Shown: piece by piece, positions 880-35,424 of the stretch
Position numbering within the stretch: the stretch's first letter is position 1
Layout: each line of letters begins with the position of its first letter
Assembly (NCBI GenBank): GCA_037446635.1
Contig: JBBIIG010000036.1
Coordinates: 1 to 41,185, forward strand
Reading direction: 5' to 3'
DNA length: 41,185 nt
From: a bacterium
GTDB taxonomy: Bacteria > Zhuqueibacterota > Zhuqueibacteria > Oceanimicrobiales > Oceanimicrobiaceae
Notes under the pieces: generated by a model
Told to the model about the DNA's origin: nothing
What the model saw: only the letters and a program-made list of their open reading frames with translations
Databases searched by the model: none
Made by a program: the position numbers and the translations under genes

Positions 880-941
880 TTTTCACTATTCACTTTACCT
901 CTCAACCTCTGCCGTTTGCCTCTACCCTTTCACGTTCACCA
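880..941. repeat. Degenerate heptamer array starting at the pilB stop codon
   Basis: tttcact attcact ttacctc tcaacct ctgccgt ttgcctc taccctt tcacgtt. Confidence 0.55.
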
Positions 942-2762
942 TTCCATCGTCGCCGACACGATCTCCTGCATGGTGGTCATGCCGCGCTTGATGCGTTCCT
1001 TGCCGGAATCCCGCAGCGACATCATGCCGCGGGTCGCGGCCAGATTGCGAATCGCCTCTTCGTCGATGTCGTCTTTGGCGCCGAGAATTTCCCGCCGGAT
1101 CTCTTTGTTGAACAGCAGCGCCTCGCTGATGGCGATGCGGCCTTTGTAGCCCTCGTAGCAGGCGCCGCAGCCCACTGGCTCATAAAAAACTGTATCGGCG
1201 ATTTCCTGCTGTGTAAATCCCAAACGCAGCAGCAGCTCCGCATCGGGATTTTCTGTTGGGCGTTTGCACTCGTCGCACAGTTTGCGCACCAGACGCTGCG
1301 CCATCACCAGGTTGATGGCATTGGCGATCAAAAACGGCTCTACGCCAAGCATGTACAACCGGGAGATGGCGCTGGGCGCGTCGTTGGTGTGTAACGTTGA
1401 GAACGTTAGGTGCCCCGTGTTGGCCAATGATATTGCAATCTCCGCCGATTTCAGGTCGCGAATTTCTCCCACCATCACGATGTCCGGATCGTGGCGCAAA
1501 ATCGAGCGCAGCGCCTGATCGAAATTCAATTTGGGATTGAGCTTCACCTGCCGGCAGCCGGGCAGCAGGTATTCCACCGGCTCTTCGACGGTGAGCACGT
1601 TCAAGCTCGGATCCATCACATGATTGAGCGCCGCCACCAGCGTGGTGCTTTTGCCGCTGCCGGTGGGGCCGGTGAGAATCACCATGCCCTGCGGTTGCTC
1701 GATGGCTTTTTTGAAATCCAGCAGCGCCTGTTCGTGCAGCCCGAGCTTGTCGAGGTTGGTGATCACTTTGCGATCGTCTAAAATACGAATCACCACGCTC
1801 TCGAAGCGGCGCTCGAATTCCACGCCCACAATTGGAATCACCGACACCCGGAAGCGGATGTAGTAATTGTCAATCTTCCTTTGAATGTAGCCATCCTGCG
1901 CCGACGAACGGTCGAAGCGATCGATGTTGATGGCGCGGTCTTTGATCACCGCCACCACGGCCTCCGGTTTAATTTCCACTTGCGAGTACCAGCGCTGCAG
2001 TTTGCCATCGATGCGGAAGAAGAAATCGGTAACGTTGCCCTCTTTCGGGATAACGTGAATGTCACTGGCGCCTTTGCGCACCGCCTCCACCAACATGCCC
2101 TCGATTAAATTGACCAACCGGCTTTTGTTGATTTCCGCGTCCAGCGCTTCTTCATCGATTTGCCGGTTTTGATCGTCGAAGACTTCGACCTCCTGCGACT
2201 CCTCGAATATTTTTTGCAGGAACTCGTTGTTTGAATAAAAGATTTCGTGGATCAACTCTTCGATGCGCTCGACCGGCGCGTAGGCGATGTCCACGTCCGC
2301 TACTTCCAGCCGTTTGCCGTAATCATAAATTTCCTGATTGGTGGGGTCGCCGGTTACCAAAATCAGCACGTTCTTTTTGTACTCGTGCCATTTGTACGGC
2401 AGGATTTTCTTGTTGAGCAATTCGTTCGAGACGTCTTCCGGCATCGTGTAAATGATTTCTTTGATGAACTCGATGCGATCGCGATCGACGTTCTCTTTGG
2501 AGATGTCGATGATCTGAAAACCATACAGCTTCGCCATCTCCACGTAAATCGCATTGCGGTCGACGCCCAAATCCTGAATCAGGATGTCAATTAGCTTGCG
2601 CTTGGTCGAGCGCGGCTCCCGGCTCTGAATGTCCGCAGCCTTCTGGATCATCGCTTCCGTGATGATGCCGCGGTTGATGAGCGCTTCCGACAACCGCCCG
2701 AGTCCCTTGCTCTGCGGCTTGATGTTGATTTCTGCAGTGATGGTGCTTTTGTCGCGTATCAT
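936..2762 (-). CDS. pilB: Type IV pilus assembly ATPase PilB (GspE/PulE family)
   Basis: ASDIH, Walker A GPTGSGKST, Asp box TVEEPVE, LRHDPDIVMVGEIRD, TGHLTFSTLHTN, Zn-binding CDEC...CGAC; adjacent to pilC. Confidence 0.95.
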   Translation of the reverse strand: MIRDKSTITAEINIKPQSKGLGRLSEALINRGIITEAMIQKAADIQSREPRSTKRKLIDILIQDLGVDRNAIYVEMAKLYGFQIIDISKENVDRDRIEFIKEIIYTMPEDVSNELLNKKILPYKWHEYKKNVLILVTGDPTNQEIYDYGKRLEVADVDIAYAPVERIEELIHEIFYSNNEFLQKIFEESQEVEVFDDQNRQIDEEALDAEINKSRLVNLIEGMLVEAVRKGASDIHVIPKEGNVTDFFFRIDGKLQRWYSQVEIKPEAVVAVIKDRAINIDRFDRSSAQDGYIQRKIDNYYIRFRVSVIPIVGVEFERRFESVVIRILDDRKVITNLDKLGLHEQALLDFKKAIEQPQGMVILTGPTGSGKSTTLVAALNHVMDPSLNVLTVEEPVEYLLPGCRQVKLNPKLNFDQALRSILRHDPDIVMVGEIRDLKSAEIAISLANTGHLTFSTLHTNDAPSAISRLYMLGVEPFLIANAINLVMAQRLVRKLCDECKRPTENPDAELLLRLGFTQQEIADTVFYEPVGCGACYEGYKGRIAISEALLFNKEIRREILGAKDDIDEEAIRNLAATRGMMSLRDSGKERIKRGMTTMQEIVSATMEW

Positions 2763-2802
2763 AGTTTGTTCAAAAAGCTACATTAAAACGATTACTCATT
2801 TA

Positions 2803-2829
2803 CTCGTTCCCACGCTCTGCGTGGGAACG
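2803..2829. repeat. REP-like perfect hairpin
   Basis: cgttcccacgc-tct-gcgtgggaacg, 11-bp stem with TCT loop. Confidence 0.8.
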
Positions 2830-2836
2830 GGGTCAA

Positions 2837-2884
2837 CGTCTGCCGTCTGCCGTCTGCCATTTGCCGTCTCACATCTCACATCTA
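2837..2884. repeat. Heptamer tandem array abutting the pilC stop
   Basis: cgtctgc cgtctgc cgtctgc catttgc cgtctca catctca catcta. Confidence 0.85.
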
Positions 2885-4225
2885 CCTATTCAACGGCGAC
2901 GGCGGACTGACAAACCCAATTTCTGAGGACACCAGCGTCAGTCCGACGATCAGCAGCGTGATGATAACCGAAATCACAATGTTTATAATATCCACCAGCG
3001 CTTTCATGCGGTGGCTGGTTTCTTTTTCATAGTAGTTGGCCAATTGCAGCGCGGCCTCTTTGAGCGTGCCGGACTCCTCGCCCGAGCGCAGCCGCCGCAC
3101 CGCGTTGAGGGTGAAGCAATTCGTTCGTCCTAAACACTCGACGAAACTTTTACCCTCCCGCAGCATCGCCGGAATCACCAGCGTGTTGATCTGCCGTTCG
3201 ATGTAGGCGTTGCGGCACGACTCCGCCGCGATGCGGATGGCGTTGATGTTTTCGCCTGAGGTGCTGTAAAGCGCCGAAAACACCCGCGCAAAAATCTCGA
3301 TGCTGATTTTGTGCAGCACCGGGCCCACCACCGGTATCTGAATGATGGTGCGATCGATAATGTAGCGCCCGCGTTCGGTGCGCGCCCATTGAATGAAGAA
3401 CCCCAGCGGGATGACGATCGCCGCGATCATCAGCACGTAATAATCCTGTAAAAACTCGCTGAAAGCGATGGTGGCTTTGGTCATCGGCGGAATTTCGATT
3501 TTAAATTTCACCAGCATCTTCGTCAGTTTCGGGAAGATGTACATCACATAAAAAATCGTGGCGGCGATCATCGACAGCACCACGACTACCGGCATCACTA
3601 AAATCGAGCGCAGGTTGCTTTTGAACTCGGCGTCGCGCTCCAAAAATTTGGCGGTGCTTTCGTAGATGGCGGCCATGTTGCCGCTGGTGGAAGCCACCGC
3701 CAACATGTGCGCGGTGAACCGTCCCAGCACTTCTTCGTGTTTGCCGTAAACCGTGTGGCCGTCGGCGCCCGACTTCAAATCTTTTTGGATGTCTTTGACG
3801 GTCTCGCGCAGCCGGCGGTTCTCGGTGTCGTTGCCGATCAGCGTGAGAATTTCGTCGTACGGAAATTTCTCCCGCAAAAGATCAGCGCAAATGCGAATGA
3901 ACAGCACCAAATCTTTGGTGGGAACTTTCAGCCGGAAGTCAAACAACTTTTTGCGGACATAAATCACCCGGTAGCCCATTTTGGTGAGGGCATTGAACAG
4001 CTCCTCGCGGGTGAAGGCCTTCTGCTCGCCAGTGATCGGCTTTTCCGATCCCCGCTGAACTTTGTACAGATAGACCGATTTTTTCTGCACCGCGTCGATG
4101 CGGATGCCTTTGGTTTTGCCCAGCTCTTTGATTTTGGACTTAACCGTTTTTTCATCCGGGCTGAACACCACCCCCTGGATGGGCTTGCCGCTGACGCTGA
4201 CTCCGACGTATCGATATTCTGGCAT
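2882..4225 (-). CDS. pilC: Type IV pilus inner-membrane platform protein PilC (GspF family)
   Basis: Start MPEYRYVG at ATG 4225 (the ORF-track extension to 4276 runs into a palindrome); two T2SSF domains, GEESGTL motif, three TM segments. Confidence 0.92.
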   Translation of the reverse strand: MPEYRYVGVSVSGKPIQGVVFSPDEKTVKSKIKELGKTKGIRIDAVQKKSVYLYKVQRGSEKPITGEQKAFTREELFNALTKMGYRVIYVRKKLFDFRLKVPTKDLVLFIRICADLLREKFPYDEILTLIGNDTENRRLRETVKDIQKDLKSGADGHTVYGKHEEVLGRFTAHMLAVASTSGNMAAIYESTAKFLERDAEFKSNLRSILVMPVVVVLSMIAATIFYVMYIFPKLTKMLVKFKIEIPPMTKATIAFSEFLQDYYVLMIAAIVIPLGFFIQWARTERGRYIIDRTIIQIPVVGPVLHKISIEIFARVFSALYSTSGENINAIRIAAESCRNAYIERQINTLVIPAMLREGKSFVECLGRTNCFTLNAVRRLRSGEESGTLKEAALQLANYYEKETSHRMKALVDIINIVISVIITLLIVGLTLVSSEIGFVSPPSPLNR

Positions 4226-4258
4226 AGCTTTATTTTGCTTGCATCGGGTTTTTAGAAA

Positions 4259-4358
4259 GATCAAACACCGTTTCAAACGGTGTTTGATCGGTAAACAATT
4301 TCTTCAAATCTCACAGCTAAATCAAAAGATCAGACACCGTTTTAAACGGTGTCTGATC
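4259..4358. repeat. Two copies of a 31-bp perfect palindrome (4259-4289, 4328-4358)
   Basis: gatcaaacaccgttt-c-aaacggtgtttgatc and gatcagacaccgttt-t-aaacggtgtctgatc. Confidence 0.9.
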
Positions 4359-4361
4359 CGT

Positions 4362-4395
4362 CTTGCAACTGTGTCAGCCTTGCGACTGTGTCAGC
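4362..4395. repeat. 17-bp tandem direct repeat downstream of the pilin gene
   Basis: cttgcaactgtgtcagc cttgcgactgtgtcagc. Confidence 0.75.
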
Positions 4396-4432
4396 AAGTA
4401 GATTGCGAGCCAACTTGCCGATCGGTGGTCTG

Positions 4433-4840
4433 TTACCTGTTAAGAATCACGGTTGAATCTATTGTTGCTGAGCTGGCATAAACCACAACCGTAAGCGGAG
4501 TTCCATCACCGTCGCCATCTTCTATTCCAACGCCCTGAATTGTGATTTGGCCGGCATTAGGAGAATTCGGCGTAACAGTGTAAGTGCCGTTGATAGTTGT
4601 GGCTGGAAAGTTGACCACACCAGTGCTGTCAAGCCCGGCCCAATCCCGGCCGCCGCCGCCCATTTGCGTGGGTTTCCGCCACCATTCTTGTGCTCGTGAT
4701 GCGATGGTCATGCAGTCCTGGGTGACAGCATCAAGATTGCCTTGCACCGCACCCGATTGGAACATGTTCAATCCCACAATGATGGCAATGCCAACGATAA
4801 TGGCGCCCAAGACAATCAGCAGAAGTTGTTGTTGACCCAT
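4433..4840 (-). CDS. Probable major type IV pilin with a non-canonical MGQQQLLL N-terminus
   Basis: MGQQQ followed by a 20-aa hydrophobic helix, an amphipathic helix and a small beta-rich head; strong RBS (GAGGAG); directly upstream of pilC-pilB. Confidence 0.8.
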   Translation of the reverse strand: MGQQQLLLIVLGAIIVGIAIIVGLNMFQSGAVQGNLDAVTQDCMTIASRAQEWWRKPTQMGGGGRDWAGLDSTGVVNFPATTINGTYTVTPNSPNAGQITIQGVGIEDGDGDGTPLTVVVYASSATIDSTVILNR

Positions 4841-5003
4841 GAGTGTTACTCCTCAGAATTAGGTTCCGTATTCAGTTAATTACCTGGTTGAGTTATGAAT
4901 TCCCCCGGATATGTCTTACATCACCTCCTTGCCGGCCCGGCGGCCGCCGGATGTTTATGGTTGCTTTCTTTATTCGATGTTTATCTTATTTGCTTGTTCG
5001 ATA

Positions 5004-5083
5004 ATTAACAATTCGCAATTGACAATTCACCATTGACAATTGTTAATTGTGAATTGCCAATTGCCAATTGCCAATTGTGAATT
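5004..5083. repeat. Inverted pair of ATTGNCA-type heptamer arrays (long imperfect hairpin)
   Basis: attaaca attcgca attgaca attcacc attgaca / attgtga attgcca attgcca attgcca attgtga. Confidence 0.85.
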
Positions 5084-25114: not shown

Positions 25115-26164
25115 CTACCCAAAAATCTTGGGATCCGTGGCGTTGGCAAGAGCTTCTTCGCGGGAGATTTTGCCCTGCTCGAGGTAGGTTTTAAGGGCCT
25201 GATCCATGGTCTGCATGCCGTAGGCGCCGCCGGTTTGGATGGCGGAAAAAATCTGGTGGGTCTTTTCTTCGCGGATAAGATTGCGCACCGCCGCGGTGGC
25301 AATCATAATTTCGTGCGCGGCCACGCGACCGTTGCCGTCTTTGGTGGGCAGCAGCCGCTGCGCCACAATGCCCTGCACGGCGTTGGCAAACATGGCGCGG
25401 ATTTGTCCCTGCTGCTCCGCGGGAAAAACATCGACGATGCGGTTGACGGTTTCCGCTGCGCTCATGGTGTGCAGAGTGGCGAAGACGAGGTGGCCGGTTT
25501 CGGCGGCGGTGAGCGCCAGCGAGATGGTTTCGAGGTCGCGCATTTCGCCAACCAGAATGACGTCCGGATCTTCCCGCAGCGCGCTGCGCAGCGCGTTGGC
25601 GAACGAGTGCGTGTGCTGTCCCAGCTCGCGCTGATTGATCAAACAATTTTTGCTGTGGTGCACGTACTCGACGGGGTCTTCAATGGTGAGAATATGCTCG
25701 CGCCGCTCTTTGTTGATGTGATCCAACATCGCCGCCAGCGTGGTCGATTTTCCGGAACCAGTAGGGCCGGTGACCAGCACGATACCTTTTTTGTTATAAC
25801 AAAGCTGGATGATGCCTTTCGGAACCTTCAGTTCTTCCAAAGTTCGCACGCGCTCCGGAATGGTGCGAAACGCCGCGGCCTCGCCGCGCAATTGAAAATA
25901 CAAGTTGGTGCGAAAGCGCGCCACGTTGGGAACGGGATACGCAAAATCGAGCTCGAGGTTTTCTTGTAACGTTTTGCGCTGGCGGTCAGTGAGAATTTCA
26001 TTGAACAGGGAACGCAGACCCTCGCTGGTAATTTTCGCCCCCTCGATTCGCCGCAGGGTGCCGTGAATTCGCAAAATCGGCGGCCCGCCGGCGCTGAGGT
26101 GGATATCGGACGCGTCTTTTTGCACCGCGTAGGTCAGGAGTTTGTCAAGGTCGTCTTTTCGCAT
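25115..26164 (-). CDS. pilT: Type IV pilus retraction ATPase PilT
   Basis: ASDIHL, GPTGSGKST, TIEDPVE, LREDPD, GEMRD, TGHLV, AVRNLIRE; ATG at 26164 (the ORF-track extension enters a repeat). Confidence 0.96.
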   Translation of the reverse strand: MRKDDLDKLLTYAVQKDASDIHLSAGGPPILRIHGTLRRIEGAKITSEGLRSLFNEILTDRQRKTLQENLELDFAYPVPNVARFRTNLYFQLRGEAAAFRTIPERVRTLEELKVPKGIIQLCYNKKGIVLVTGPTGSGKSTTLAAMLDHINKERREHILTIEDPVEYVHHSKNCLINQRELGQHTHSFANALRSALREDPDVILVGEMRDLETISLALTAAETGHLVFATLHTMSAAETVNRIVDVFPAEQQGQIRAMFANAVQGIVAQRLLPTKDGNGRVAAHEIMIATAAVRNLIREEKTHQIFSAIQTGGAYGMQTMDQALKTYLEQGKISREEALANATDPKIFG

Positions 26165-26178
26165 AAATCCTTTTGGGT

Positions 26179-26250
26179 TGTAACTCAAAGCTCTGCTTTT
26201 CCGCAAAGCGGATCGGTATCCGAGAGAGCAAACCAGAGGTTTGCATTACA
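26179..26250. repeat. 72-bp REPIN/MITE-like element, copy 1
   Basis: tgtaactcaaagc...gcaaaccagaggtttgcattaca; near-identical inverted copy at 38573-38645. Confidence 0.9.
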
Positions 26251-26253
26251 GAA

Positions 26254-28050
26254 TCACGGCGTCGTCATCAAACGCGGCGTAATGAAAATCAGCAAATCCG
26301 TCTGCCGCACCGTTTTCGTTTTGTGACGGAACAGGTTGCCGATCAGCGGCACGTCGCCGAGCAGCCACACCTTATTCGTTTTATCAGTAACGCCTTCCTT
26401 AATTAATCCGCCGATCACCATGGTGTCATTGCTTTTTAAATTGACCACGGTTTCCACTTCGCGTTTGGAGGTGATGGGGGCGCTGTTTTCGCCGGCCACC
26501 ACTTGGCCGGTAATTTCTTCAATCACCGGATTGACGAACAAAGTGATGGTTTGATCTTCCGCCACGTGCGGCGTCACCCGCAGCGAAATGTTGACGTCGC
26601 GATATTCGAAGGTGACCACGTCGCCCTGCCCGCCGACGCCGCGGTTGATTTGCGGAATCGGCACGTTGGTGCCGACGCTGATGATCGCCTCCTGATTGTC
26701 CATCGCTAAGATGCGGGGGTTGGAAACCAGTTTGGAGTTGGTGTGAGATTGCAGAAAATCCAGCACCGCGTTGTACTCGCCAAAATTGAGGGTGCCGAAA
26801 TTCACGGCGCCGCCGGTCAGCGGCACTTCCGCCGTGTATTGAAACGGCTTGCCGGAGGGCAACAGCACTTCCTTAAAAATACTGGCGTTGATGGTCTTCG
26901 ACCAATCGATGCCCAATTTTTGCTCGTCCTGCGGCGCAATCTCAATGAGTTTCGCTTCGATCATAATTTGCGGCGTCGGCACATCCAGCGCCGCCACCAT
27001 CGCCTCGATCTGCCGCAAGTTGGCGGGCATATCGGTTACCACCAAAATGCTGCTGCGATTTTTCTTGGCGGCGGTCTGCCCCGGCTCCAACCCCTGCGGC
27101 GGATGAAAATCCTGATTGAAAACCTGCAGCTTTGCTTTTTCCGAAAGCATTTGCGAAAGCGTCGTCTGCAAGTTGCTGGCGTCCACGTATTTCAGCCGAA
27201 ACACTTTCGTTTCCAACTCCAGCAGCTCGAACTTCTCGCGCGGCTTCACCACGATCACCTCGCCCTGCACCGAATAATCAAAGCCGTTGGCTTTGACGAT
27301 CATGTCCAACGCCTCTTTGATGGTGACATTGGAAAGGCTCACCGTCACCGGCCCGGTGACATCGCGGCTGGCGACAATGTTTAGATTGGTTTGCTTCGAG
27401 AGCAGTCGCAGCACGTTGGCGATCTCCGCGGCTTTGACATCCAGCGAAATGCGCTCCCGGCTTTGCAAAACAGTCGGCAAACTCTGCAAAGGAAAAATGT
27501 CCACCGCACCGTTGCGGCTGCTGTGCGACGGGAACGTTGCGTCGAATGCGGCGTCGCCCATGATCGTCGCTGAGCCGTTGGCGCTTCTGGGCGGCGGCGC
27601 CAACTCTTTCAGATCGATGGCAAGCAAGCCATCCATCTTTTGGGTGATCTCGTACTCCATGACGCGGGCCAGCGCAAAAGTAACTTTCAAGATCCGCGGC
27701 GATGATTGCCACGGTTTGGCTTCGACCTCCTGCACCACCCGACGGTCGATTTTAATTTTGTGTGTGGGCAAATCCAACTGGCAATCCCGCAAATAGATCG
27801 CCAATTGCGGCGGCGATTCCTGAAACTGGCTGACGTACTTTCCGGTGCCGGGGCACGCCAGCAAAATGCGGTACGCGCCGCCGAGGTTGAACATTTCGAT
27901 GGATTGTAATTTGCCGGTTTGCGCCCAGGCGTTGGCGGCAACCAAAAGGGTGACGGCTGCGGCGCCGAAAAAATGGCGAAACAAGCCAACCGCACCTCTG
28001 AAATTCGATCGGTGATTTTTTATTCGAAGCAAGGTTTTATTCATTGTCAT
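26254..28050 (-). CDS. pilQ: Type IV pilus secretin PilQ
   Basis: Signal-like N-terminus, AMIN-like domain, STN (ISLDVK..VLRLLS), PQIMIEAKLIE, LGDVPLIGNLFR, LLIFITP. Confidence 0.92.
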   Translation of the reverse strand: MTMNKTLLRIKNHRSNFRGAVGLFRHFFGAAAVTLLVAANAWAQTGKLQSIEMFNLGGAYRILLACPGTGKYVSQFQESPPQLAIYLRDCQLDLPTHKIKIDRRVVQEVEAKPWQSSPRILKVTFALARVMEYEITQKMDGLLAIDLKELAPPPRSANGSATIMGDAAFDATFPSHSSRNGAVDIFPLQSLPTVLQSRERISLDVKAAEIANVLRLLSKQTNLNIVASRDVTGPVTVSLSNVTIKEALDMIVKANGFDYSVQGEVIVVKPREKFELLELETKVFRLKYVDASNLQTTLSQMLSEKAKLQVFNQDFHPPQGLEPGQTAAKKNRSSILVVTDMPANLRQIEAMVAALDVPTPQIMIEAKLIEIAPQDEQKLGIDWSKTINASIFKEVLLPSGKPFQYTAEVPLTGGAVNFGTLNFGEYNAVLDFLQSHTNSKLVSNPRILAMDNQEAIISVGTNVPIPQINRGVGGQGDVVTFEYRDVNISLRVTPHVAEDQTITLFVNPVIEEITGQVVAGENSAPITSKREVETVVNLKSNDTMVIGGLIKEGVTDKTNKVWLLGDVPLIGNLFRHKTKTVRQTDLLIFITPRLMTTP

Positions 28051-28519
28051 CTCTCAGTATCAGCGTTATGATTTTGCCTTTCTTTTTGCACACCACCCGG
28101 TTTTTATCGATATCCAGAACTTTTAAGTCGCCGATTTGATCGCCCTCTTTCATGACGTTGTCGCCGATGAGAACGTAGGCCTCGCTGCCCTTCCAGATCA
28201 CACCGCGCATGACGAGAGCGCTGGAATCGCTTTGGGTGGTGTCCGCTTTCGCCAAACGATAGCTTTCCGAAAACGGATCCCGCCCCCACGCGGCGAATTC
28301 AACGCGCCTTTCTCCCATTCGTTTTCTGATCGCCGCTGGCTTTTTTTCCACAGTGCTTTTCGGCGCTTCCGATGTGGTGGCGGCCGCTGTTTGCTTTTGG
28401 TCATCCTGAGCTTGCGCCGGCTGGGATTTGCTGCACACAAATTGATTCACCACAAAATAGACGAGCACGGCCGCGGCCACAGCCATCAAAACTTTCTCAC
28501 GTTTCTTCAGCTCTGCCAT
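28037..28519 (-). CDS. PilP/GspC-like protein
   Basis: N-terminal TM, low-complexity linker, GRDPF motif, beta domain; located between pilO and pilQ. Confidence 0.7.
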   Translation of the reverse strand: MAELKKREKVLMAVAAAVLVYFVVNQFVCSKSQPAQAQDDQKQTAAATTSEAPKSTVEKKPAAIRKRMGERRVEFAAWGRDPFSESYRLAKADTTQSDSSALVMRGVIWKGSEAYVLIGDNVMKEGDQIGDLKVLDIDKNRVVCKKKGKIITLILRDDNE

Positions 28520-29103
28520 GATTTCTGATCCTTTTCAGCGGGCGTCTGGCTCAAAAACAGCGCCAGGTCAACGTTGATCAAAACCTGCGGGAAAACGCTT
28601 TCTTCATAAATCAGCGAAAAATCCCCGAGCGAAACAAAAAACGGCAGCGCCGCCAGCGTTTCGATGAAGCGGCCGAAGTTTTTATAGTAGCCGCGAATCT
28701 GAAAGTGGACGATCAGCTTGATGATTTCCGCGTCCTGATTTTCCGGCTGCTGCACCAGCGCATTGTATTCCGGAATGATGGACACGAAGGTCAGGCCGTG
28801 GGCCGCGCCCCGCGCCTTTATTTCTGCGATGAGTTTTGGCAAATCGTCCTTGGGACGAACGCGCGCCGTGGTTTTTGCCAGCTCGAGCTGCAATTTTTCG
28901 ATCTGGGTTTGCAGCGTGGAAACTTGCACGTCGGTCACCCGCAAGCTCTGCAATTGCATCATCAGCTCCTCGGTCTGTTCTTTGAGCGCCTGCGATTTGG
29001 AGAGATCGGGGCGATACAAAAAAACATACCAGCCGACGCTGGCGCCGATCAAAACGGCGAGCGTCGCCAAAAAAGGCTTGAGTAAATCCATGATGGGTTT
29101 CAT
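28507..29103 (-). CDS. pilO: PilO-family protein
   Basis: TM, coiled coil, GYYKNFGRFIETL ferredoxin-like core. Confidence 0.85.
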   Translation of the reverse strand: MKPIMDLLKPFLATLAVLIGASVGWYVFLYRPDLSKSQALKEQTEELMMQLQSLRVTDVQVSTLQTQIEKLQLELAKTTARVRPKDDLPKLIAEIKARGAAHGLTFVSIIPEYNALVQQPENQDAEIIKLIVHFQIRGYYKNFGRFIETLAALPFFVSLGDFSLIYEESVFPQVLINVDLALFLSQTPAEKDQKSWQS

Positions 29104-29108
29104 TGCGT

Positions 29109-31682
29109 TTACAGCTCACACTCCAAGGTGAATGCCAGGTTGCCGTCGTCCAGAATTTTCTGATGCAGCAGGCGCACGCTGTAAAAATAATTGGCGCGCT
29201 CGAGCTCGAGCAGAAACTTCGCCAGGTTGATCCCTTCCATGGAATTATTTTGAAACGCCACGCCTTCGAGAACGAGGATTTCCTGGGTGTATTCCTGCTT
29301 CTGTTCGTTTTGCGCGCTGCGGTAGCGCATCTGCAGCGAAGTCAACGTCATGTTGGGCGGCAGCAAATTGCTGACGGCCTTCAAATGGCTGTCGCCGTCC
29401 AACCGCACATCAATTCGACTTTTATATAAATCGGCGCGCGCGCGAATCTCATTAAGGGTTTTCTGCAATTCCAAAAATTTTTCGCGCTTGGGCTTCACCT
29501 CGCTGAACTCGGAATTGATGCGCTGGAATTCGCGGTGAATGTCCCGCAGCTCGAACTTGATCTCCTGGGAGAACCACGCCATCGTCAACGTCAAAATGAC
29601 GAACAGATAGCGCAGCATTTTTTTGAAATGTTGCAGGGCGTGCGCGCCTTTGAGTTTTTTCGGCAACAAGTTGAGCGACGTTTTGCGATCCAACGCCAGC
29701 CCCAGCGCCGTGGCGAAGCGCGGGCCTAAGCTAAACAGCTCTTTGCTGTTTGCAAATTTCCCCGCCAAGATCGCTCGAAAGGGATTGAGCCTCTGCACGT
29801 CGGCGCTCAACTCCTGGCTTAGTCTTTCCGGCAGATTTTTTAGAAACGCGCCGCCGCCGGTCAAATAAATTTTTTCCAAAGCAGAAGCGCCGAACTTCTC
29901 ATTTACAAAATCCATGGTGCGGCGAATTTCGTTGACGAGCCGTTCCAGAACCGGACCCATCATCACCATAATTTCTTTAACCGGCACCCCCTCTTTTGTC
30001 AGCAACTCTTCTTCGACGGCGACGACGCCGTAATGACGTTTCAGCTTTTCAGCCTTCTCTTTATTGATGACGATTTCCTGGCCTTCGACAAAAATCGAGC
30101 CGGTGAGCGCGTCGGTGAAATCGTCGCCGCCGGTGGCGATTTCGCGGGCGAACAGCATTTGTCCGCCTTTGATAAAAATGAAATGAGTGGCTTTGCCGCC
30201 AATGTCGATGATCGCATAATTTTTGGCAGGGTCCGATTTCACCGTCTCTTTGAACAGTTGATAGAGCGCCGCCGGCAGCGTGGAAATTTTGGCTGGCGCG
30301 ATTTGCGCGTGCTTTAAAATTTCGAGGTGGCCGGCGATGACGTTTTCCGGCACGGCTGTCACAAAGACGTCGTATTTGCCCTGCTGCTGAAAATTCTTTG
30401 GGTTGAGAATTTGATATTCAAAAACCGTGGATTCCATGGGGAAGGGAAAATCTTTACGGCAAGCCCAAGGCACGGCCTTCGCCAGCTCTTTGCGGGACAT
30501 TTTCGGAAGCTGGATATTTTGGAAAAACACTTCCAGTCCGGAAACCGCGCTGGTGGTCAAGGTGTTTTTGAACGATTTGAGTTTGAAATGGCGGCTAATC
30601 GCCTCGCCAATGATGCGGCGTTTCTCCTCCTCGGACGCCTCGACCGGCAAAGGCGGCAGCGGGCGGATGCCGCAATCCACCAGCGTCAACCCACGCACGC
30701 TTTTTTTAAGCACGATATATTTCATGGCGCTGGTTCCGATATCCAAACCCAGCAGCCGAGTGTTTTCGAACAACGACCACAGTGAAAAGTTGACGGAAAC
30801 AACCGTCGGCGTTGATTTGCTATTGGGCTGCGGCCGCGGCGCGCTCTGCTGTGCAGCGATTTTTGTCGTGCGGCGTTTCTGGAATTCGCTGGCTTTTGAT
30901 TCCACCGGCTTCGCAAAAATGCTCAGCGGCTCGTCGGCGACCTCCGGCTCGCGGTCGCGGACCGGTGCCGCCTGCGGCGAGGGCGCCGGCTCCTCGGCCT
31001 GAACCGTGAACGGAGGTTCGTCATCTTTCAACGCCGCTTCTTCTTCGGATGGTGAAATAAATGGCGGCGGTTCAACCTCTGAGTCCGGTTCGGTTTGCGG
31101 CTGCGGCGGCAGGATCAGCGGCTCCTCTATTTCGGCCGGCAGGCTTTGAAATTCCACTTGTGTTAGACTACGTTTTGGTTTGTGCGAGCCCTGTTCGCGC
31201 GGTTTTCCCTCTCCTAATTCCGCGGGCAGACTTTGAAATTCTACTTGGGTCTCCGCGTCACTGTTTTGCGAAAACGCTGCTTCGGGTTCCGGCAGCGAAA
31301 AATTTAAATTTAATTCAGCCAGCGTGCTTTCGTCGAACGTGGGCGGCATTTCCTGATCGCGAGTTGGCAGGCGGTTTTCTGGCTGCGCGGCTTCGGCGGC
31401 CAAATCTAGCGGCAGCTTCAGCGCGTCTTCGTTGATATCGAAGCCGGGCTCGGCGCCATTTGCAGGAGCGACGGTGGGCTCGGGTGGGGAGTTCGGTGAG
31501 CCCGCGGCTTGCCGCGAAAATTTGTCGGCCAGCAGCAGCGAGAGATCGAGCAAGTCCGTCATCGCTGCCTGCTCCTCGATCTCGTTGAAACGCGGCTTTC
31601 TTTTCAAATTGCCGTTCTTCGAGTTGGGCGAGACCGCGGGTTCAGCGTCTAAAAAATCAAAATCGAGATTTTCGGTTTTCAT
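29109..31682 (-). CDS. pilM: PilM-PilN fusion with an acidic Pro-rich N-terminal extension of about 300 aa
   Basis: LGLDIGTSAMK, IIDIGG, YLTGGGA (actin-like PilM), then LNLLP, TM, coiled coil and PilN core. Confidence 0.88.
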   Translation of the reverse strand: MKTENLDFDFLDAEPAVSPNSKNGNLKRKPRFNEIEEQAAMTDLLDLSLLLADKFSRQAAGSPNSPPEPTVAPANGAEPGFDINEDALKLPLDLAAEAAQPENRLPTRDQEMPPTFDESTLAELNLNFSLPEPEAAFSQNSDAETQVEFQSLPAELGEGKPREQGSHKPKRSLTQVEFQSLPAEIEEPLILPPQPQTEPDSEVEPPPFISPSEEEAALKDDEPPFTVQAEEPAPSPQAAPVRDREPEVADEPLSIFAKPVESKASEFQKRRTTKIAAQQSAPRPQPNSKSTPTVVSVNFSLWSLFENTRLLGLDIGTSAMKYIVLKKSVRGLTLVDCGIRPLPPLPVEASEEEKRRIIGEAISRHFKLKSFKNTLTTSAVSGLEVFFQNIQLPKMSRKELAKAVPWACRKDFPFPMESTVFEYQILNPKNFQQQGKYDVFVTAVPENVIAGHLEILKHAQIAPAKISTLPAALYQLFKETVKSDPAKNYAIIDIGGKATHFIFIKGGQMLFAREIATGGDDFTDALTGSIFVEGQEIVINKEKAEKLKRHYGVVAVEEELLTKEGVPVKEIMVMMGPVLERLVNEIRRTMDFVNEKFGASALEKIYLTGGGAFLKNLPERLSQELSADVQRLNPFRAILAGKFANSKELFSLGPRFATALGLALDRKTSLNLLPKKLKGAHALQHFKKMLRYLFVILTLTMAWFSQEIKFELRDIHREFQRINSEFSEVKPKREKFLELQKTLNEIRARADLYKSRIDVRLDGDSHLKAVSNLLPPNMTLTSLQMRYRSAQNEQKQEYTQEILVLEGVAFQNNSMEGINLAKFLLELERANYFYSVRLLHQKILDDGNLAFTLECEL

Positions 31683-32581: not shown

Positions 32582-33544
32582 TCAATCTTCCTGGATCACG
32601 GCCTCCAACCCCTTCCCCTCCAGCGCAGCCAAATCGCTATCCACCCGCGCCTGCGCTTTCAATTTTGGATTCAACTCGACGGCTTGTTTCAACGCCGCGA
32701 GCGCATCCGCCTTTTTGCCAGCGGCGAGACGAATCACCGCCAAGTCGTACCAGACCTCGGCGTTGTCCGGCGCTAACTTCGCCGCCCGTTCCTGATGGGG
32801 CAGCGCCTCTGCGAATTTTTTCTGGGTGAAGAGCGTCCAGCCTTCGTTCCAGGCGTAATTCATTTGTGCGATGTTCAGCAGCCGCCCCAATTCCTGAAAC
32901 GGCTCGGGATGATCATCCACGCGGATGTCGATGGCGCGGTCGGTGTAGCCGCCGTAGCCGGCGCCTTTCTTTACTACCAGCAATGCCGCGGATTGCTTGC
33001 CGCGGGCGTCGCCGCCTTTGGTTTCGCCGGCCAACAAAGCCGCGTACAGCCGCTCCGCCAATGTGCCGGTGGTTTCGAGGAAAGTTTTTTCCATTGCCAG
33101 CACGACGTCTTCACCGGCGAGAATGTTGCCCTGCGCCGCGTAGTTGCGGCCAGCGCGACCGCCAGCCCACGCTAAACAATTCTCGCCCGTGTAAGTTGCC
33201 GATTTGCCATCGGCGCTGACGATGCCAAACTGCCGGCGGGTGGGATTATCATCGATCCGCAACAGTATGTTCACGATTTCTTCGGGCGTCGCGCCTTTTT
33301 CCAAAAGTTCGAGTCCCCGCCAGCCAAAGGTGGTGTTGGCAAAGGACTGTGTCGCCACCGCGCCGACGTCCGCTTTGGCCCACGGCACGACATTGCCTAC
33401 CGCAAAAAATCGGGACGCCACGGCCACGCCCAATTCGCCGGTGACGGAGTCGCGACCAACGATAGAGAAGGTGGCGAGGTTTTCTTGAGCGTGTAAGAGG
33501 TGAAGGCTAAATAGAATGAGCAAAATGGAAAAGTTTTTACGCAT
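32582..33544 (-). CDS. Secreted DUF1028 (Ntn-hydrolase-like) protein with C-terminal TPR
   Basis: Signal peptide, then ATFSIVGRD..TGELGVAVAS, GAVATQS, QGNIL, GGDARGKQSAAL, DIRVDDH; TPR tail; start at 33544 or 33562. Confidence 0.88.
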   Translation of the reverse strand: MRKNFSILLILFSLHLLHAQENLATFSIVGRDSVTGELGVAVASRFFAVGNVVPWAKADVGAVATQSFANTTFGWRGLELLEKGATPEEIVNILLRIDDNPTRRQFGIVSADGKSATYTGENCLAWAGGRAGRNYAAQGNILAGEDVVLAMEKTFLETTGTLAERLYAALLAGETKGGDARGKQSAALLVVKKGAGYGGYTDRAIDIRVDDHPEPFQELGRLLNIAQMNYAWNEGWTLFTQKKFAEALPHQERAAKLAPDNAEVWYDLAVIRLAAGKKADALAALKQAVELNPKLKAQARVDSDLAALEGKGLEAVIQED

Positions 33545-33574: not shown

Positions 33575-33628
33575 GCAATTTCAATCCGCAATTTTTAATC
33601 TTCAATTATCGATTTTCGATCATCAATC
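33575..33628. repeat. Heptamer array (AATCNTC-like) following the duplicated pfkA tail
   Basis: caatttc aatccgc aattttt aatcttc aattatc gattttc gatcatc aatc. Confidence 0.75.
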
Positions 33629-33673
33629 CTATTCATCCCCCAACGACGTCCCAATCGCCCGCAACTTGATTTG
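33629..33673 (-). pseudogene. Displaced duplicate of the pfkA 3' end
   Basis: Reads QIKLRAIGTSLGDE* versus ARAVGTSFGDE* in pfkA; 28/34 nt identity between 33629-33662 and 34321-34354. Confidence 0.85.
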
Positions 33674-34030
33674 CTACTTCCTCTTGGGCCTAATACGAAC
33701 CATCCCTGGGGAGATGACGCTGAAGGCATCCGGCATTTCGGCGTCACGTTCGCCTACTACCTTTGAAACAATACTGGCTTTCGTATCAGGCAACAAACCA
33801 GCAAGACGAATTAGAATGACGCCAAGATGCACCAAGCGTTGTCGATACACCAGTTCGCCATAATCTTTGTCTAGTGTGACAAGCAGTGCCTGATGGTCAT
33901 TAGCTCATTGAAGCACAATATTGTCAGCGATGCTTGGCTCCATTTCAGCAACGTAGAGCACGTCATGCCCATCCTGACGGAGTTGGTCGACAATCTGTTT
34001 ATCCACCCCTTCATCAGCCAAGAGATTCAT
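33674..34030 (-). pseudogene. DUF5615/PIN-like (VapC45-type) toxin with in-frame TGA at codon 42
   Basis: MNLLADEGV...GHDV...DNIVLQ*ANDHQALLVTLDKDYGELVY...GVILIRL...RPKRK*; TGA at 33905-33907; the frame continues to TAG at 33674. Confidence 0.88.
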
Positions 34031-34263
34031 GCAGCCTGCTCAGCAATTGGGTAAACCACATCAGCCCGCAGCGCTTGCGCGGCAAACTCAATAGCCGCAA
34101 GAATCGCCGGTCTGGTCAGCCGCGGATGGGCTTCCATAATTTGTTCAATGGTTTCACCTGCACCGAGTTTTTCCAAAATCAACTCAACCGTGATGCGTGT
34201 TCCGGCGACCACTGGCTTGCCCATCATGATATTCGGATGAGACTGTATCAGCTGATCTTTCAT
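34027..34263 (-). CDS. DUF433-family antitoxin
   Basis: PNIMMGKPVVAGTRITVELIL motif; RBS GGAGGT before ATG 34263; ATGA overlap with the toxin gene. Confidence 0.92.
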   Translation of the reverse strand: MKDQLIQSHPNIMMGKPVVAGTRITVELILEKLGAGETIEQIMEAHPRLTRPAILAAIEFAAQALRADVVYPIAEQAA

Positions 34264-34286
34264 TTTACACCTCCACGAAACAACCA

Positions 34287-34320
34287 CATCAATCCTCAAT
34301 CATCGAATTTTCAATCCAAA
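34287..34320. repeat. Heptamer array following the pfkA stop
   Basis: catc aatcctc aatcatc gaatttt caatcc; similar to 33575-33628. Confidence 0.7.
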
Positions 34321-35424
34321 TCACTCATCCCCGAACGACGTCCCTACCGCCCGCGCCGACTCAATTTCCTGGCAACCCACTGGCACCAGCCGCTGCTGCT
34401 TGATGGCTTCTTTAATGGGCACCGCAATAATCTCCGTGCCCCGCAGCGCCACCATGTGCCCGAACTGCCCCTTGGCCGCCAGCTCGCACGCCATGAATCC
34501 AAACTTGGTGGAGAGATTGCGGTCAAAAGGTGTGGGCGAGCCGCCGCGCTGCAAATGGCCCAACACGGTTACGCGCGTTTCGAGGCCGGTATCTTTGCTG
34601 ATGCGGTGCGCCACCAACTCGCCAATGCCACCGAGCCGTACGGCATCCGTGCGGCGGCGATCCATTTCTTTCACGACCATTTCGCCGTCCGCCGGTTTGG
34701 CGCCCTCCGCCACACAAACAATGCTGAAGCGCTTGCCGTGCAGGCTGCGGTCTTTAACTTTATTACAAATGCTTTCCCATTTAAATGGAATTTCCGGAAT
34801 GAGAATGATGTCGGCGCCGCCGGCCAGCCCCGCGCCCAACGCAATCCAGCCCGCGTAACGGCCCATCACTTCGATGACCATCACGCGGTGATGCGAGGAA
34901 GCCGTGGTGTGCAGCCGGTCGATGGCCTCGGTGGCGACATACAGCGCGGAGTCGTAACCGAACGTGATGTCGGTGGCGGAGAGATCGTTGTCGATGGTTT
35001 TGGGCACGCCGACAATATTGAGCCCCAATTGCGCGAGCTTGTTGCAGATATGCATAGTGCCGTCGCCGCCGATGGCCACCATGGCATCGAGGCCCCAGCG
35101 TTTGTAATTGCGCACGGCCCGCGACGATTCATCCGTGATTTTTACCTGGCCATCCAGTTCTTCAATGGGATAATGAAAGGGGTCGCCCTTGTTGGAGGTT
35201 CCTAAAATGGTGCCGCCTAAAGATAAAATTCCCGACACCTCGTGGTTGCTGAGCTCGTGCATACGGCCCTCTACCAGCCCCTCGAAGCCATCCTCAATGC
35301 CGATGACCGTGGCATCGTATTTTCCCATTGCCGACTTGGCCACCGCGCGAATCACCGCGTTCAACCCCGGACAGTCGCCGCCACCGGTGACAATTCCCAA
35401 TCGTTTGATTCCAATTTTCGCCAT
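34321..35424 (-). CDS. pfkA: 6-phosphofructokinase (group III / mixed-substrate type, probably ATP-dependent)
   Basis: TGGGDCPGLN, GGTILGTS, GGDGT (Gly at the ATP/PPi-determining site), PKTIDND, EVMGR, LGHLQRGG. Confidence 0.95.
   Translation of the reverse strand: MAKIGIKRLGIVTGGGDCPGLNAVIRAVAKSAMGKYDATVIGIEDGFEGLVEGRMHELSNHEVSGILSLGGTILGTSNKGDPFHYPIEELDGQVKITDESSRAVRNYKRWGLDAMVAIGGDGTMHICNKLAQLGLNIVGVPKTIDNDLSATDITFGYDSALYVATEAIDRLHTTASSHHRVMVIEVMGRYAGWIALGAGLAGGADIILIPEIPFKWESICNKVKDRSLHGKRFSIVCVAEGAKPADGEMVVKEMDRRRTDAVRLGGIGELVAHRISKDTGLETRVTVLGHLQRGGSPTPFDRNLSTKFGFMACELAAKGQFGHMVALRGTEIIAVPIKEAIKQQRLVPVGCQEIESARAVGTSFGDE

Follow-up and report, generated by a model that had tools for sequence, protein, structure and literature searches.

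Many chromosomal toxin-antitoxin (TA) modules lie between housekeeping genes without a mobile element, which raises the question of how they arrived there. The closest described process concerns restriction-modification (RM) genes, for which a study by Nobusato from 2000 is said to be a source on insertion with long target duplication. Furuta, Abe and Kobayashi (2010; PMC2853133) describe this mode for RM genes, whose enzymes are suspected of breaking DNA, and several of the traits reported there recur in our material: addictive genes without a mobility gene, long direct repeats of variable length (>30 bp) and a target left intact, the repeats often running across a start or stop codon. The species in that study are mostly naturally competent. 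By the definition used in that study, the repeat at the pfkA site treated here exceeds 30 bp and the insert, below 20 kb, carries no other mobile-element gene; its cargo does not consist of an R and an M gene. The differences are that the cargo is of the type II TA kind, that identity between the repeats is 80-98% and their differences lean towards silent sites, and that 14 sites occur in one genome, with stacking. Since the cargo is TA rather than RM, the DNA-break explanation offered for RM genes does not apply. In excerpt, a 2013 review ascribes the long-target-duplication mode to RM systems and not to TA systems (PMC3874152), and chromosomal TA modules as a group are described as highly mobile (PMC2701414). 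A search of titles and the opening parts of abstracts, with most subscription journals outside its scope, found no TA version of the gene-end footprint. The value of the present case lies in a cargo of TA type, in how many independent sites there are and in the evidence for both copies being functional alleles.

Other described systems share parts of this picture. The displacement of rhs C-termini or T6SS effectors (Kirchberger 2017, PMC5361080), proposed to occur by homology-facilitated illegitimate recombination, would likewise use a one-sided anchor and no integrase, push older material downstream and build stepwise arrays; there, however, a variable toxin domain is replaced in a specialised locus (PMC5361080), whereas here any housekeeping gene end serves and the protein is essentially unchanged. 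CIMEs are without recombination genes, sit at the 3' ends of protein genes and stack (PMC7563491), but they are reported to be derived from ICEs or IMEs and to occupy a small number of fixed att sites (PMC7563491), and within the limited flanks available here neither a parent element nor a fixed att sequence was found. Unconventional circularizable structures are recombinase-free segments that their flanking direct repeats allow to loop out as circles (PMC7843796); those repeats are long and near-identical and surround resistance genes (PMC7843796). The analysis of the present cases covered contigs. Pairs of DUF433 and PIN genes are predicted TA modules (PMC2701414, PMC5499597), and one of them, vapBC10 of Synechocystis, is reported to be functional (PMC3834315). 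The cargo at pfkA has the layout of this PIN-COG2442 (DUF433) type, in which DUF433 is followed by an overlapping PIN/Mut7-C-like gene (PMC3834315, PMC2701414, PMC5499597), with matches to PF04255 and PF18480 and an ATGA overlap between the genes; it differs in that the toxin is not intact, its gene being interrupted by a stop codon. An integron gene cassette was also considered and set aside, as no attC-like core pair is present at the pfkA site.

The locus lies in the window, by which we mean the whole 41,185-nt stretch of DNA that was analyzed. Its features are given here in the order of transcription.

34321..35424, minus strand: pfkA, an intact phosphofructokinase gene (PF00365; TIGR02483 PFK_mixed, the mixed-substrate subfamily)
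34321..34354, minus strand: tail 1, the final 34 nt of the working pfkA, with a TGA stop (from the sequence)
34289..34320, minus strand: degenerate heptamer array 1, inside the duplicated segment (period-7 score 13/21)
34270..34274, minus strand: GGAGG motif resembling a ribosome-binding site, 5' of DUF433 (read from the sequence)
34027..34263, minus strand: DUF433 (COG2442-type) predicted antitoxin, 78 aa, intact (PF04255, E 1e-20; role from PMC2701414 and PMC3834315)
33674..34030, minus strand: DUF5615 predicted PIN/Mut7-C-like toxin, pseudogene (PF18480, E 3e-22; in-frame TGA at 33905-33907)
33629..33662, minus strand: tail 2, an orphan copy of the pfkA 3' end with a TAG stop, probably reaching ~33673 (28/34 nt identical to tail 1)
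33575..33628, minus strand: degenerate heptamer array 2 (period-7 scan, score 15/21)
32582..33544, minus strand: DUF1028/TPR gene, the downstream flank (sequence, family match)

These coordinates bear out the arrangement given in the preliminary description, in which a pfkA end and its array are followed by DUF433, DUF5615, and a second pfkA end with an array of its own. A recount reproduces its figure of 28 identical positions out of 34 between the two tails, whose differences comprise two amino-acid changes, V>I and F>L, a synonymous one, and the stop, which is TGA in tail 1 and TAG in tail 2. Including ~30 nt of array past the stop, the repeat measures 67 nt at 81% identity (local E 3e-11), and it probably continues for another ~10 nt on the upstream side, beyond a 3-nt gap. 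With its two genes, the insert spans 692 bp; its GC content is 48.8%, whereas each flanking gene has 58.8% and the genome 52.6%, which agrees with the earlier account of an AT-rich cassette of about 0.7 kb, and the locus contains no recombinase-like match, as expected of the integrase-free unit proposed. The identification of the second gene as DUF5615 stands by its PF18480 match, but an in-frame TGA at codon 42 had been overlooked. This stop is absent from the open homologue in locus L320 (see below) and makes the toxin gene a pseudogene, which appears to have been inactivated later, after insertion. NCBIfam offers no name for the DUF433 or the DUF5615 gene of the cassette, and a PDB sequence search with DUF433 gave no meaningful match. 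The 57-nt spacer between pfkA and DUF433 holds array 1 and the GGAGG motif; a scan of this spacer found no promoter-like or terminator-like site, so read-through from pfkA is possible. As a rule for such cassettes, the suggested capture of host transcription is not supported, since 3 of the 14 sites described next have cargo that runs antisense to the host gene. Tandem Repeats Finder, at a score of 30, listed neither array of the pfkA locus, and two more heptamer arrays in the window (2837-2883 and 5003-5083) adjoin type IV pilus-like genes.

A scan of the genome for gene ends repeated downstream, which the preliminary description had proposed, yielded 14 sites, many of them bracketing small genes. 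Genes were called with a self-trained model and copies of their last codons were sought within 2.5-3 kb downstream, which gave matches for 22 of 2863 genes on the sense strand and for 2 of 2863 in a reverse-strand control; this contrast, together with the local E of 3e-11, excludes chance for the pfkA repeat. From the 22 matches we subtracted six paralogue pairs (C9, C7, C28:43791, C95, C32 and C21), one case adjoining an N gap (uvrA, C8) and two without cargo (C17 and C60), and added one from a search with internal segments, the matches of which were otherwise mostly due to paralogues or long tails. At the two sites without cargo (C17:5138-6442 and C60:17058-17924), the gene-end copies lie 60-120 nt downstream with no cargo between, and these are possibly cassettes stripped of their contents. 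Beside the N gap, the end of the uvrA-like gene (C8:50236-53400) occurs in several copies together with a REP-like spacer, which is either a tandem array or an artefact of assembly.

The 14 hosts are unrelated genes, each with an orphan copy of its 3' end 0.6-1.8 kb downstream: pfkA, glutamate dehydrogenase (gdhA), 3-hydroxyacyl-CoA dehydrogenase (hbd), hemB, malate dehydrogenase, nucleoside phosphorylase, lptD, an ABC permease, a DEAD/Hrq1 helicase, a type IIG RM gene, a disulphide oxidoreductase, a sulphate permease, an Fe-S protein and one unnamed gene. The coding repeats range from 27 to 335 nt, with whole repeats 80-98% identical and inserts of 573-1785 bp, and no boundary sequence common to the hosts is evident by eye. 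TA-type cargo is bracketed at 12 of the 14, namely ParE, BrnT/BrnA, UPF0150, TumE, DUF433/DUF5615, PemK-like, DUF4160/DUF2442 and DUF2283 genes, among which we take DUF4160, DUF2442 and DUF2283 to be TA families. Four of these 12 cassettes carry a broken toxin, so addiction is not what holds the cassettes at present. At the remaining two sites the cargo has no family match: behind hemB (L115:1629-2483) lies a 285-aa gene with a PIN-like start by eye, and behind nucleoside phosphorylase (L119:1003-1895) lie genes of 71 aa and 195 aa that look nucleotidyltransferase-like by eye, none with a Pfam or NCBIfam match. Both cargoes may represent new TA or defence genes.

Copies of 5' ends also bracket small genes in two cases (C5, 89 nt at 89%; C42, 100 nt at 72%), one of which encloses a DUF433/DUF5615 pair. 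Flanking repeats were found at 5 of 208 ordinary genes taken as a control, all REP-like or periodic by eye, and 29 of 40 TA modules in this genome, a set seeded with the bracketed ones, are unbracketed. No large serine recombinase domain was found in the genome, and its three tyrosine recombinases (XerC-, XerD- and IntI-like by inspection) are all away from the 14 sites; the gene at C9:96300-97304 is an integron-integrase-like tyrosine recombinase, again named by inspection. The genome has comEC and dprA. Genes resembling PilB, PilC, pilin, PilT, PilQ and PilM were recognized by inspection at 936-4840 and 25115-31682 of the window, and these type IV pilus-like genes possibly bear on natural competence.

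The divergence between the copies has the character of two working alleles. Across 15 pairs, third codon positions account for 127 of 183 differences (121 of 174 without a pair later judged a paralogue), where drift in a dead copy plus silent change in a live copy predicts a share of about one-half (p = 8e-8, sites treated as independent). There are 108 synonymous and 51 non-synonymous codon changes, and no copy has gained an internal stop. The third-position bias indicates that both copies derive from working alleles and, together with the finding that tail 2 and its array are of the type found at the working pfkA end of L032 (30/34 nt in the tail; 25/30 in the following 30 nt), upholds the earlier view of the tails as alleles of different lineages rather than a fresh duplication. 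Tail 1 matches the pfkA end of L031 at 31/34 nt, and two types of pfkA end circulate. Young pairs differ mostly at silent sites (2 of 2 for gdhA, 3 of 4 for L031); in the nucleoside phosphorylase (PNP) pair the single differing base is non-synonymous. As to polarity, comparison of both copies with outgroups gave no consistent direction: three of four outgroups lie nearer tail 1 for the ABC permease, and the helicase is mixed.

That the pfkA site might hold varying cargo in relatives had been anticipated, and L031, L032 and X1 do hold other or decayed inserts; L031 and L032 are the two nearest of the 79 metagenome loci compared. In L031 (92%), different cargo (an orphan gene, DUF2281 and PemK) is followed by an 87-nt copy of tail and array (83/87) and then by more small genes; a 64-aa orphan gene without a Pfam match occurs twice in this stack (L031:1229-1423 and 2546-2740). 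L032 (93%) has the same DUF433, a DUF5615 with an internal deletion and a tail copy that the contig end cuts off after 14 nt. In the X1/X2 contig, apparently one data set, the pfkA end shows 4 differences in 152 nt, the DUF1028 side is matched and 373 nt replace 695; X1 is the closest strain seen and has a tail-1-like pfkA end without the DUF433/DUF5615 cassette. The cargo behind pfkA therefore turns over, and X1 sits awkwardly with the idea that tail 1 arrived with the cassette unless there was further exchange.

The empty site with a single tail that had also been predicted did not appear, as no empty pfkA-DUF1028 allele was found among 29 GTDB relatives and 79 metagenome loci or in G001, G008 and G016. 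Within the fetched flank, which is short in several cases, pfkA is followed by neither a tail copy nor a DUF1028 gene in any of the 29 GTDB relatives (57-85% identity); the DUF1028 neighbour is likewise absent from the 79 metagenome pfkA loci, 49 of which extend 500 nt or more downstream. No pfkA match was obtained from G001, a genome of the same genus (74% complete), and a degenerate tail pattern gave 0 matches in the genome contigs, a set that may omit this genome and very near ones. A tail match in L077 (23/33) was taken as chance, as the protein is not conserved. At two sister sites, family-level relatives hold empty alleles with a single tail: G016, G007 and G012 at hbd, and G012 at gdhA. 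Other TA-like cargo, without a tail copy, is present at gdhA and hbd in G001 and G008. In G008, gdhA is directly followed by a homologue, 77% identical, of the antitoxin found here after gdhA tail 2, and this implies that the bracketed cassette was added here ahead of older cargo.

The footprint extends to other TA families and phyla. Of the DUF5615 loci in the family outside this genome, 7/26 have flanking repeats, four being clear gene tails (two on short contigs). Across the phylum, flanking repeats occur at 4/29 DUF4160, 8/24 BrnT and 0/27 HPr loci, and at least four of the 12 DUF4160 and BrnT cases are clear gene tails, the others being intergenic or ambiguous. Loci of the four-helix-bundle family PF05635, used as a non-TA comparison, have repeats in 5/22 cases, by eye mostly periodic or intergenic and not gene ends. 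Among DUF433 loci from many phyla, which are best hits rather than a random sample and include kin that are not independent, 16 of 71 usable loci have flanking repeats, ~8 of them at gene ends by inspection; the gene-end cases come from KSB1, Nitrospirales, Thermoanaerobaculia, Chloroflexi, Ignavibacteriota, Bacteroidota and Binatia. In L320, a 95%-identical DUF433 and an open DUF5615 lie behind a 224-nt, 92% copy of the 5' end of gyrA (gyrA by inspection), so the process is specific neither to pfkA nor to 3' ends. This near-identical cassette, and the 5'-end cases in the present genome, speak against the dedicated targeting of gene 3' ends that had been suggested. A DUF433 gene of Chloroflexi (L376) is accompanied by two stranded copies of the neighbour's 5' end and one of Bacteroidota (L384) by two of the neighbour's 3' end, a pattern that we read as repeated insertion at one site. 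In L375 (1356-1435), a DUF433 module is bracketed by a 79-nt identical tRNA-like copy.

We consider it somewhat probable that the TA cassette, bracketed by two pfkA-end alleles, was inserted by host recombination with a related lineage as the donor, and four other readings have to be weighed against this. An assembly artefact or a chance match is barely credible: the assembly is in 110 contigs and a similar uvrA case (C8) sits at an N gap, but the pfkA copies differ at 6/34 nt, the control gave 2/2863, and independent assemblies (L031, and L032 with the first 14 nt only at a contig end) carry tail copies behind pfkA, which largely refutes the artefact that the preliminary description had named as its possible undoing. 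Very unlikely, too, is a dedicated mobiliser acting in trans, be it an integron integrase, a reverse transcriptase or a nuclease working on heptamer or REP arrays. The genome has an IntI-like gene, ~200 period-7 and ~200 period-8 windows against 22-60 for other periods (N gaps inflate all of these), many of the former two in close pairs in intergenic DNA, and several copies start within ~15 nt of the last cargo stop. Period-7 arrays, however, reach the threshold at only 2/14 sites against a background of 137/2896 genes, which rules them out as a required part and goes against the involvement once proposed for them. Pairs of attC-like cores, sought with core motifs rather than a covariance model, are present at 2/14 sites, near background, and not at pfkA. 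The only reverse transcriptase in the genome is a 985-aa fusion at C27:438-5608, together with cas2, cas1 and a cas6-like gene; a TR/VR pair of a diversity-generating retroelement (DGR) was rejected, as the differences involve several bases and are not adenine-specific and the reverse transcriptase lies on another contig.

Remnants of integrase-driven islands, in which attP restored the gene end and the element decayed to a TA module, are an unlikely source, though less so than a mobiliser in trans. CIMEs do keep att sites, lack recombination genes and stack at protein-gene 3' ends (PMC7563491), the pfkA tail copies of three lineages begin within ~15 nt of one another, and one DUF433 locus (L375) is bracketed by a tRNA piece. 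Against such an origin stand the 14 unrelated targets in one genome with repeats of 27-335 nt, the 5'-end cases, the near-identical cassettes at the pfkA 3' and gyrA 5' ends, inserts of 0.6-1.8 kb without an integrase relic, and the lack of any tyrosine-recombinase-like match in L001-L123 and L279-L319, most of these loci being 1.5-4 kb long. The strongest competitor, which we nevertheless hold to be improbable, is a self-templated long target duplication by break repair, identical at first, with a later double crossover that moved the cassette and tail 2 between lineages or replaced tail 1 and so introduced the silent differences. It would fit the published RM repeats, which are near-identical (44/46 and 47/47; PMC2853133), the PNP pair one non-synonymous base apart, the tail 1 type without a cassette in X1, and the same cassette behind a TAG-type end resembling tail 2 in L032. 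Yet the youngest pairs, those of gdhA and L031, already differ mostly at silent sites, the bias extends across sites, and TA modules, unlike restriction enzymes, presumably offer no obvious DNA break.

On the reading that we prefer, insertion by host recombination from a related lineage, the incoming DNA would be a pfkA end with a TA pair behind it, and the shared gene end would anchor it by homology on one side, with RecA/DprA at work and probably following natural transformation. The donor's far end might then be rejoined where the paired stretch begins, or the donor DNA might enter as a small circle by a single crossover; either route would keep one gene whole and strand a second gene end past the cargo. 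The bias towards gene ends may follow from geometry and selection, with cargo in the adjacent intergenic space and a gene that must stay whole, and would need no targeting enzyme, and the second copy could then serve as a homology arm for more exchange and stacking. Counting against this explanation are the missing empty pfkA-DUF1028 allele, the unbracketed state of most TA modules and the cargo without a tail copy in G001 and G008. Homology-facilitated illegitimate recombination usually deletes recipient DNA instead of duplicating it. In the laboratory, such recombination is described as rare (PMC5361080).

A broader proposal, which we advance tentatively and with clearly less confidence than the account of the pfkA site, is that type II TA pairs may spread without an enzyme of their own, anchored on the end of a neighbour gene, entering as gene-end-plus-TA fragments or looped-out circles and resisting loss between the repeats for as long as the toxin is active. 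The footprints seen here carry insertion with long target duplication over from restriction-modification genes to TA modules, and their presence around TA cargo argues against a restriction-enzyme cut as a required trigger. The genome described here holds 14 such footprints of varied length and divergence, and the pattern recurs around DUF433 in several phyla. If the proposal is true, an enzyme-free route could explain a sizeable share of the "orphan" chromosomal TA modules across phyla, about one in ten of the loci sampled here.
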